64,000 nucleotides of DNA, from the IMG/VR virus record IMGVR_UViG_3300019376_000001. One strand, 5' to 3'. Shown here one piece after another: positions 6,032 to 7,036 of the stretch. The notes under the pieces are model-generated. The model searched no databases and was not told the DNA's origin. It worked only from the letters and a program-made list of their open reading frames with translations. How positions within the stretch are numbered: the first letter of the stretch is position 1; each line of letters starts with the position of its first letter. The translations under genes were made by a program, and so were the position numbers. Source of the DNA: a virus (Duplodnaviria; Heunggongvirae; Uroviricota; Caudoviricetes).

Positions 6032-7036
6032 TTATGGTTTATAACTATTCATAATATCAATAACCGTTACATTAGATTTAGCCTGGTGAGAATTAGTGTT
6101 ACTATGAGCACTGTTTGAACAGGTCTGTGAGTTAGTGACATTGGAATTTGTTTGGCTGTGAGCACTATTAGAACAAGTCTGACCATGTGTACTATGGCTT
6201 CTGCTCTGGCTGTGCGCACTATTAGAACAACCCTGGCTATGAGCACTGTTAGAACAAGTATTACTGTTATATCCATTACTATTGGTATTACCATTGGTTC
6301 CGTTTGAACAAGTATTACTGTGACTACCATTAGTTCCACAAGTACCATTAGATTTATACTGATAAGAACATTGGTCAGTATAGAATCTACTACTATGATG
6401 CTTCAATCCATTGCCACGTGCACCGTAGGAGTTGCTACCATTAGAACAAGATTGACCATGAGAACTATTGCTATTGGTATTGCTATTATAGCCGTGGCTA
6501 TTTGTATTTCCATGAGTACCATTAGAACAGGTGTTACTATGGCTACCATTGGAACAAGTGTTGCTATTAGAGCCGTTTGTACAAGTGTTACTATTTGTAC
6601 TATTGGAACAAGTATTACTGTTTGATGTGTTAGAGTTATTATTGCTATGAGCACTATTAGAACAAGTTTGGCTGTTTGTTCCATTAGAATGATTCTGGTT
6701 ACTGTGAGTATAAGAGTTACGACACTTAATAGTTTCCAGTTTAGCAATAACTGCTTCTAACTGGTTACCCGTATTCGCATAAATGATTGTACCTATTCCA
6801 ACAGTAGAATATGTTGGGTATAAGTTTGCATTTGAACCCAGGTAACTATCTGCTTTCATGGCATTTAATTTAGCCACAAGATTATTTACATCGGAGGCTT
6901 TTGCGGGAGTAGCAGAAGGAACAGCAATCGTAGCCATACCTCCGCCATATTTCGTAATTACAGAATTAAGTCTATCATACCAATTTTTAATTTGCGCGCT
7001 GTATAATAGTCTATCGCCGCGACTTACTGTAGGCAT
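6032..7036 (-). CDS. Ser/Asn/His/Cys nonamer-repeat protein; putative substrate of YcaO and the rSAMs
   Basis: ~110-aa non-repetitive N-terminus, then 18 units of [S/T]-[N/H]-x-x-[H/N]-[S/G]-[N/Q]-x-[C/N]; 14 Cys in total; lies between YcaO and two rSAM genes. Confidence 0.85.
   Translation of the reverse strand: MPTVSRGDRLLYSAQIKNWYDRLNSVITKYGGGMATIAVPSATPAKASDVNNLVAKLNAMKADSYLGSNANLYPTYSTVGIGTIIYANTGNQLEAVIAKLETIKCRNSYTHSNQNHSNGTNSQTCSNSAHSNNNSNTSNSNTCSNSTNSNTCTNGSNSNTCSNGSHSNTCSNGTHGNTNSHGYNSNTNSNSSHGQSCSNGSNSYGARGNGLKHHSSRFYTDQCSYQYKSNGTCGTNGSHSNTCSNGTNGNTNSNGYNSNTCSNSAHSQGCSNSAHSQSRSHSTHGQTCSNSAHSQTNSNVTNSQTCSNSAHSNTNSHQAKSNVTVIDIMNSYKP
6077..6703 (-). repeat. 27-bp-period coding repeat (two blocks of 9 nonamers split by a 37-aa segment)
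   Basis: Units such as SNGSHSNTC, SNSAHSQTC, SNGTHGNTN. Block 1 NGSHSNTCSNGTHGNTNSHGYNSNT recurs as NGSHSNTCSNGTNGNTNSNGYNSNT. Confidence 0.9.

Follow-up and report, generated by a model that had tools for sequence, protein, structure and literature searches.

A phage-encoded repeat protein as a putative protein-sized substrate of two paired radical-SAM enzymes

To our knowledge, the peptide chemistry of radical S-adenosylmethionine (rSAM) enzymes is known almost entirely from the short precursors of bacterial peptides that are ribosomally synthesised and modified post-translationally (RiPPs). In sacti- and ranthipeptide systems such as PapA/PapB, SCIFF/CteB and CefA/CefB, the precursor gene lies directly beside genes for SPASM/Twitch rSAM maturases, and the precursor has regularly spaced cysteines in a low-complexity core. 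Both traits recur in P0001, a repeat-protein gene (6032-7036, minus strand; 334 residues, ATG start, stop codon included) of a Caudoviricetes virus. The window analysed here is a stretch of 64,000 nucleotides that corresponds to bases 74393-138392 (reverse strand) of the 191,974-bp IMG/VR virus record IMGVR_UViG_3300019376_000001, estimated to be 98% complete. Unlike the usual RiPP precursors, which are shorter than 100 residues, P0001 belongs to a family of proteins of 160-560 residues with a folded N-terminal domain (N-domain), and its system differs from those of the sacti- and ranthipeptides in that two different rSAMs are always paired, the arm cysteines are dispensable in relatives and the genes are almost confined to phages. 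The explanation favoured here, with a probability of roughly 0.55, is that P0001 is a protein-sized, RiPP-like rSAM substrate made of a handle and a length-matched hairpin.

The first line of evidence is the conservation of the gene cassette. P0001 is part of an operon of abutting genes on the same strand, in the order YcaO, repeat protein, rSAM-A, rSAM-B and a gene for a protein of 131 residues. Both enzymes carry CX3CX2C plus auxiliary cysteine motifs. rSAM-A (4640-6016, minus strand; 458 residues) has CX3CX2C at residues 23-30 and a Twitch-like C-terminal half, and its best model is a Twitch-type rSAM. rSAM-B (3196-4647, minus strand; 483 residues) combines CX3CX2C with a SPASM-type cysteine pattern, and its SPASM region aligns weakly with CteB (5wgg, E 0.019) and with the PapB, SCIFF and CefB models. 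A previous reading of the window from the sequence only had taken P0001 as the substrate of the adjacent rSAMs, and this is borne out by the order substrate > rSAM-A > rSAM-B, which is found in 14/14 locus rows (encoding contigs) and in 17/18 of the IMG/VR loci fetched with rSAM-A (31/33 in total), where the locus rows include re-fetched and near-duplicate contigs. All neighbours other than the cassette genes change between loci. This conservation makes it very likely that the neighbouring rSAMs take P0001 as their substrate. Outside phages the cassette is practically absent: a search of 185,579 species genomes gave four matches, all of them on contigs of Bacillota metagenome-assembled genomes, and two of these contigs are 155-175 kb long. 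Among 50,697 GenBank phage records, no match was found by tblastn of P0001, its N-domain and rSAM-B or by blastn of positions 3000-9000. The phages that carry the cassette probably infect Bacillota. Many of the relatives read TAG as glutamine (L002, L005, L006, L008, L009 and G008-G018), with one to eight in-frame TAG codons in their rSAM-A matches; the genes of the window are read through with table 11.

P0001 has no family match in Pfam, PHROG or NCBIfam. A profile of its first 112 residues retrieved 292 clusters (50% identity) at E <= 1e-3, of which 129 reach E <= 1e-10, and in nearly all of the matches listed the N-domain begins at the N-terminus of a protein of 150-420 residues. All members examined follow a common plan, which consists of a domain of about 105 residues, a Cys-[RK]-Asn junction, a variable region and a conserved end. 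In P0001, whose parts all lie on the minus strand, the N-domain (residues 1-104; 6725-7036) is formed by three helices (13-30, 47-62 and 87-100), with an AlphaFold2 predicted local distance difference test (pLDDT) of 74-95 over residues 11-100. It is followed by the junction Cys105-Arg106-Asn107 (6716-6724), the Cys and Asn of which are invariant in 108-110 relatives. The variable region of the family is rich in Asn, Ser, Gly and Thr (N 17%, S 15%, G 13%, T 12%, C 7%), and the end has the consensus S-N-G-T-x-I-D-I-x-[NC]-[SA]-x-[TA]-T-K-x-N, which in the C-terminal segment of P0001 (residues 316-334; 6035-6091) reads S-N-V-T-V-I-D-I-M-N-S. The named ESM Atlas clusters nearest to the N-domain are viral clusters, and PF27846 (tSAM_targ_Cxxx_rpt, Pfam 38.1) is present in 13-58% of their members, which means that relatives have already been flagged by curators as predicted rSAM targets. 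The likeness of P0001 to these CXXX-repeat targets comes through the Atlas clusters and through the C-x3-C spacing of some family members; P0001 itself has C-x8-C instead of CXXX spacing, and the CXXX-target maturase model TIGR04115 is not reached (23-28 bits against a cut-off of 350). A search of the literature on phage YcaO, rSAM and RiPP systems and on CXXX-repeat targets found nothing relevant.

The sequence-only reading, which gave no strand for the gene, had described the repeat region as two blocks of nine 9-mers with ten in-register motifs, and the position counts and shuffling confirm this description. Arm 1 (residues 117-197; 6446-6688) and arm 2 (residues 235-315; 6092-6334), delimited by division into 9-mers and by Tandem Repeats Finder, hold nine nonamers each, and the consensus of the 18 units is S-N-[GS]-x-[HN]-[SG]-[NQ]-T-[CN]. 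Position 1 is Ser in 16 units and Thr in two, position 2 Asn in 16 and His in two, and position 3 Gly in eight and Ser in eight. At position 5 there are ten His and eight Asn, so that one or the other is present in 18/18 units; position 6 is occupied by 14 Ser and four Gly, position 7 by 11 Asn and seven Gln, position 8 by 14 Thr, and position 9 by 11 Cys, six Asn and one Arg (Cys or Asn in 17/18). H-[SG]-[NQ] occurs in register ten times, and P0001 has 17 His and 14 Cys, placed at fixed positions of the repeat. The identity at lag 9 is 0.54 in each block; 2000 shuffles gave 0.20 and 0.15 (z = 7.9 and 9.6), and none of them was as high. At the DNA level, Tandem Repeats Finder detects 27-nt arrays at 6153-6257 and 6516-6624. 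The nonamer periodicity of P0001 is far beyond chance. When the two blocks were compared by hand at the Cys/Asn position 9, about 6/9 units were concordant in either the mirror or the parallel register, a count that does not discriminate between them. The repeat number is stable at about 91% identity, because a relative from the fecal run X17 (2025, a different study), which is identical to this extent over 4600-8885, shows 388 substitutions, mostly transitions, and no indel across the operon. Between the arms lies an insert of 37 residues (198-234; 6335-6445), and the earlier observation that it holds most of the aromatic and basic residues of the repeat region agrees with the residue count (four of the six Tyr, the sole Phe, two of the three Arg and both Lys).

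The period of nine is not family-wide. Among 102 cores, the best strong period was 9 in 12, 5 in 13 and 10 in 5, and no strong period was found in 63, which argues against a specific solenoid geometry. The beta-solenoid that had been offered as an alternative is not supported by the AlphaFold2 model either, which shows no solenoid and in which residues 109-334 are modelled at a pLDDT of about 30 and without secondary structure.

The second line of evidence comes from the length of the arms. Across the family, the most complex 15-residue window is located at 0.4-0.6 of the core in 39/70 proteins, compared with about 14 if the distribution were uniform (Kolmogorov-Smirnov p = 1e-4). Seven proteins form a subfamily with the tip motif G-x-Y-x-x-N-Q/T-C-x-F/Y, which in the insert of P0001 appears as F-Y-T-D-Q-C223-S-Y. 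In these seven proteins, 64 to 115 residues separate the junction from the tip Cys, and 42 to 103 separate the tip Cys from the I-D-I Asp, with P0001 at 115 and 103, respectively. The two lengths covary 1:1 (Pearson r = 0.996, n = 7), and their difference is 12-14 residues in 6/7. A first, crude tip-finder, which picked 'tips' of 2-4 residues, had given r = 0.18 and was replaced by the windowed measure and the homologous anchor. Because the arms differ in sequence, as in P0003, where one is His-rich and the other Tyr-rich, their equal length looks like a structural constraint. The matching of the two arms suggests an out-and-back path of the chain, that is, a hairpin with the tip at the distal end and the C-terminal strand back at the junction. 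The insert had previously been proposed as a variable binding loop. Its position as a loop fits, as it would act as the distal tip between paired arms; its hypervariability does not, because the insert is conserved within the subfamily and it is the arms that vary more.

Comparison of the relatives also restricts the chemistry that can be considered. The sequence-only reading had suggested that the two rSAMs could split the work, with thioethers at the Cys and cyclophanes at the His of the repeats. The substrate of L010/L016, however, has NSYGDSNAR arms with no His and one core Cys, and the enzymes of this locus are orthologous to those of the window (rSAM-A with 55% identity, E 1e-170; rSAM-B with E 1e-151). 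Two further members, P0133 and P0147, have cores without any Cys or His. Since orthologous enzymes serve arms devoid of His and Cys, thioethers and cyclophanes in the repeats cannot be the shared chemistry, and the proposed split, although possible for P0001 itself, is not general. The H-[SG]-[NQ] motif itself is backed by the comparison, in that the aromatic-small-polar motif to which it belongs is enriched family-wide: [WYHF]-[SG]-[NQDT] is present 380 times, compared with 146 +/- 11 in shuffles (z about 21, a value that internal repeats inflate) and with 198 copies of the motif in reverse, and 56/108 proteins have at least three copies. The ten H-[SG]-[NQ] copies of P0001 resemble in this respect the repeated aromatic-x-x core motifs of triceptides (YhhB/XncB type), whose YhhB model NF041707 is not reached (21 bits against a cut-off of 445). 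The aromatic position is taken by Asn in 8/18 repeats of P0001 and in nearly all of those of P0002. This free replacement implies that a cyclophane cannot be needed in every repeat.

The spacing of the cysteines is informative as well. In the family, CxC (3 observed against 83 expected), CxxC (14 against 81) and CC (37 against 82) are depleted, and C-x8-C (210 against 79) and H-x3-C (84 against 38.5) are enriched, as is C-x3-C in some members. HxH is not enriched (25 against 33.6 expected), and the parity of the cysteine count is unbiased (49 odd, 40 even). Taken together, the depletion of CxC and CxxC, the HxH count and the parity argue against classical metal sites, an iron needle of the gp37 type and a pure disulfide ladder, the last of which was considered as a model and is disfavoured by the unbiased parity. 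Cysteines that are kept apart speak against a role as a metal site or a disulfide oxidoreductase and fit cysteines that are addressed individually. The candidates for a universal modification are the junction Cys105, the tip Cys in the subfamily, the I-D-I strand or Asn/Ser/Gly backbone positions. The comparative data narrow the experiment to Cys105, the tip Cys and the I-D-I strand rather than to the His/Cys repeats. In the QhpC/QhpD system, a SPASM rSAM installs several intraprotein Cys thioethers in a subunit with little regular secondary structure. QhpD is the best NCBIfam match of rSAM-B (3.4e-07), yet it is matched with 29 bits against a cut-off of 453, and the P0001 system differs from it in its phage context and in having neither a dehydrogenase partner nor quinone chemistry.

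The gene directly upstream of P0001 encodes a YcaO protein (7041-8846, minus strand; 601 residues; Pfam YcaO 1.7e-30), an optional member of the cassette. Besides this window, six locus rows contain it; two of the six are near-duplicates, and in one the gene takes the downstream position. Its best NCBIfam model is the E. coli-type YcaO_for_S12 (6.1e-34 over residues 12-300), with 117 bits against a cut-off of 700. In E. coli, YcaO is an accessory of RimO on S12, and the phage protein resembles it in length (601 residues against 571 model positions) and in the pairing of YcaO with rSAM protein modification; unlike RimO, the phage rSAMs are not methylthiotransferases, and YcaO is found in some lineages only among the loci examined. 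A relationship with thiazole/oxazole-modified microcin (TOMM) or other azoline systems is not apparent, as the SagD-type model TIGR03604 is not reached (34.9 bits against a cut-off of 219) and no E1-like/ocin-ThiF, flavin mononucleotide-dependent dehydrogenase or TfuA partner was matched among the genes scanned with Pfam and NCBIfam at 1815-12824. The cores of YcaO-positive loci are richer in Cys (median 6.5% against 2.3%, p = 0.028) and in His (5.5% against 2.3%, p = 0.009), and YcaO therefore seems to be an add-on for Cys/His-rich arms. At the other end of the cassette, rSAM-B is followed in most loci by a conserved small protein (2826-3221, minus strand; 131 residues), which across loci has about 92-131 residues and the common motif M-x-W-x-N...I-F-P...Y-G-Q-K-M. 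Its AlphaFold2 model, which is of medium confidence (pLDDT 69.5), gave E values of at least 0.42 with Foldseek against PDB and VIA Z of at most 3.5. The fold searches with this model gave no winged-helix match that would point to a RiPP recognition element. The N-terminal extensions of rSAM-A and rSAM-B are short.

The promoter of the operon bears on the time of its expression. A search for RNA sequencing runs that contain the stretch listed none. An extended -10 consensus promoter of the sigma-A type, TTGAC-N17-TGnTATAAT (8870-8898, minus strand), precedes the YcaO start codon by 24 nt and itself follows immediately on a terminator-like hairpin with a 14-bp stem (8974-9005, minus strand) that lies between the operon and the upstream gene; judged from these signals, the operon is its own transcription unit. 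The window contains 38 perfect TTGAC-N17-19-TATAAT sites compared with 0.21 expected, nearly all of them with a TG-extended -10, and 33 of the 38 are at 27.3-41.1 kb (27302-41073), a region of small ORFs (open reading frames), mostly on the minus strand. Sites elsewhere are found at 23651, 44046, 44095 and 60416; the phage sigma-factor gene (44149) has one of the 38 immediately in front of it. The plus strand encodes, from about 44 kb onwards, this sigma factor, a terminase-like protein, the portal, virion proteins and a tape-measure protein, and this structural module has a single site of the class (60416). P0001 is about 37 kb away from it and on the opposite strand. The same type of promoter occurs just upstream of the cassette in at least seven loci of relatives. 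Host-consensus promoters are commonly used for the early genes of phages that encode a sigma factor themselves, and the cluster of promoters looks like the host-sigma-A early regulon of a Bacillota phage. Because its promoter belongs to the host-consensus class, transcription of the cassette would fall to the host holoenzyme and take place earlier than that of the structural genes or separately from it.

A mechanism can be proposed from these results. The core of the cassette would be rSAM-A (Twitch-like), rSAM-B (SPASM) and the small protein, with YcaO added in this phage. The three-helix N-domain may be a permanent handle and possibly an enzyme docking surface too. From Cys105-Arg-Asn, the chain would run out along arm 1, turn in an aromatic/basic tip of about 30 residues with its conserved Cys, return along arm 2 beside arm 1 and end in the T-V-I-D-I strand next to the junction. 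The rSAMs would install covalent cross-links that lock an otherwise unstructured loop, the likeliest being Cys-derived thioethers at the universally conserved cysteines of the junction and the tip, with further links in P0001 perhaps at the position-9 Cys or the position-5 His, and YcaO would add ATP-dependent backbone chemistry in Cys/His-rich lineages. A more tentative extension is that the two rSAMs zip the arms into a rigid, protease-resistant hairpin of tunable length with a small variable tip, which may act early as a probe against a host defence or target, or else as an accessory adhesin; in that case P0001 would stand for a new class of phage proteins that are stapled after translation. 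With regard to its role, we incline to see P0001 less as a core virion fibre than as an accessory factor whose synthesis precedes that of the structural genes, for example a stapled binding probe directed at a variable target in the host, because the promoter of the operon is of the host-sigma type that prevails in the early-looking region.

Several points weigh against the explanation of P0001 as a modified handle-and-hairpin protein. All of the chemistry is deduced from gene neighbourhood, and neither rSAM reaches any curated maturase cut-off (15-55 bits against 170-720, NCBIfam). Their best matches below the cut-offs are spread over peptide maturases (QhpD, PapB, CcpM, GggB, HxsB, DynA and others): the PapB model gives 27-32 bits against 340, and in the case of the His-Xaa-Ser system HxsB gives 22-31 bits against 370 and HxsC 15 against 268, with no match of P0001 to any Hxs model. 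No RiPP recognition element was identified in rSAM-A, rSAM-B or the small protein. The hairpin rests on a length covariation in one subfamily of seven phylogenetically non-independent proteins, plus a coarser family-wide statistic, and 'early' expression is read from promoter class only. The YcaO correlations compare 7 with 10 loci that include near-duplicates and are not independent. Finally, among 20 large relatives with a similar portal, an orthologous rSAM-A (E < 1e-100) was found in 3, divergent rSAM matches in 9 and none in 8. This patchiness indicates that the cassette is accessory.

Beyond the operon, further features of the loci were recorded. A gene of 316 residues after the operon (1815-2765, minus strand) is conserved beside the cassette in several relatives, sometimes duplicated, and has its own TTGATT-17-TG-TATAAT promoter-like site (2796-2824), a variant that is repeated at 1808 and 1620. 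A weakly U32-like gene often follows the cassette in relatives; for the 316-residue gene, the U32 label is faint and comes from the L009 homologue only, with no Pfam U32 match in the window at E <= 1. Upstream of the operon (9026-12824, minus strand) lie p258, an M28-like peptidase (351 residues), p470 (phrog_18912) and p106, which are syntenic upstream of the cassette in the closest relatives, L007 and L015, and absent elsewhere. In other loci the cassette is directly downstream of lysis genes, namely that of an endolysin-like multidomain protein in L002 (8233-9630) and those of a holin and an SH3_3 protein in L005 and L008 (L005:3947-4569; L008:3946-4568). A 193-kb record, IMGVR_UViG_3300028591_000087 (L022, L024), has two full cassettes, one combining YcaO with a 260-residue substrate and the other having a substrate of about 555 residues and no YcaO, and L009 has at 1902-5533 a second, divergent rSAM-A/rSAM-B pair behind an N-domain-like ORF of 173 residues. 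Within the family, P0118 (367 residues) has an insertion of about 115 residues in the N-domain. In P0161 (702 residues), the N-domain and Cys/Tyr arms come after an N-terminal region of unknown nature and two InlB B-repeat domains (Flg_new_2, 4.6e-22). P0118 and P0161 each precede a gene of rSAM-A size (452-472 residues), and both contigs also have a separate radical-SAM gene of about 340 residues. Sequons of the N-x-S/T type are abundant in the arms, with 15 in P0001, and GT2/GT8 glycosyltransferase genes are found just downstream of the cassette in several lineages (L002:13687-14697; L005:13593-16182; the contig of P0161). Given these sequons and genes, glycosylation of the arms is a possibility and a candidate only.

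Of the other explanations, the one that survives best, while still doubtful, is that P0001 is a virion fibre or adhesin in which the N-domain is the anchor, the arms form a trimeric needle or solenoid, the tip binds a receptor and the rSAMs harden the protein against gut proteases. The tip of the T4 long tail fibre, gp37, is a needle with a returning chain and a distal head, and the out-and-back path with a distal aromatic/basic tip, as deduced for the P0001 family, would be of this design. P0161 is a natural fusion that puts the module after the two InlB B-repeat domains, phage Ig, fn3, Flg_new and Peptidase_S74 proteins in the ESM Atlas have N-domain-like folds at their N-termini, and the cassette is just downstream of large ORFs and the holin gene in L005/L008 and of the endolysin-like gene in L002. 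The Atlas matches, however, have template-modelling (TM) scores of 0.60-0.67, which are weak for a helical domain of 100 residues. The resemblance to the anchoring segments of fibre proteins that had been noted from the sequence for the N-terminus, where PAKASDVNNLVAKLN spans residues 44-58, is not supported: no virion or fibre homologue of the N-domain was detectable in Pfam, PHROG, NCBIfam or fold searches, the last of which gave weak helical look-alikes only (PDB best Z 7.2, to an unrelated helical domain; BFVD E of at least 0.057; AlphaFold Database clusters E of at least 0.09). Unlike gp37, P0001 has no sequence or fold match, no enrichment of HxH and no chaperone genes seen, and it lies outside the structural module, on the other strand and under a promoter of the early-region class. 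The patchy distribution among close relatives also speaks against a fibre.

It is unlikely that P0001 is instead an antimicrobial or signalling RiPP released at lysis, with the N-domain as a leader cut at or near Cys-Arg-Asn and the M28-like peptidase (10929-11984) as the candidate protease. Such a model accounts for the precursor gene adjoining those of the maturases and for the lysis genes beside the cassette in L002 and L005, long structured leaders are described for proteusins (PMC10858898), and the peptidase is syntenic in the closest relatives. The peptidase is, however, missing from most loci, and neither a transporter nor an immunity gene nor a signal peptide was found in the operon by Pfam and NCBIfam scans. 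The virtual absence of the cassette from bacterial chromosomes would be unusual for a bacteriocin, and the conserved C-terminal strand and the 1:1 matching of the arms suggest that both ends stay with the N-domain.

There is little room for an unmodified, disordered protein of low complexity that is linked to the rSAMs by synteny only, the enzymes acting on another target such as a nucleic acid or a small molecule. The arms are indeed predicted to be disordered, and the enzymes score below every curated family cut-off. On the other hand, the adjacency is nearly invariant over very divergent loci while the other neighbours change, the SPASM/Twitch architecture is typical of peptide maturases, and length-matched arms together with an invariant junction indicate a defined structure. 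Least probable, by a little, is a His/Cys-rich metal binder (an Fe/Zn store, an Fe-S donor or a metal-stabilised needle) that would need no covalent modification, for which the His and Cys at fixed repeat positions, the enrichment of H-x3-C and the Fe-S clusters needed by the adjacent enzymes can be cited, but to which the strong depletion of CxC, CxxC and CC, the lack of HxH enrichment and the many members that keep both enzymes with His/Cys-free arms are opposed.

P0001 as a handle with a length-matched hairpin would extend rSAM chemistry to a different kind of substrate. With 292 clusters at 50% identity, found nearly exclusively on contigs of phages, this would be a widespread system, and what it acts on appears to be an entire folded protein. 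We know of no described counterpart of a helical handle with a length-matched double arm and a tip. If the arms are covalently zipped, the cassette would provide new cross-linking enzymes for protein engineering, and it would add a novel type of module for phage-host interaction to those of gut phages, probably of Bacillota.

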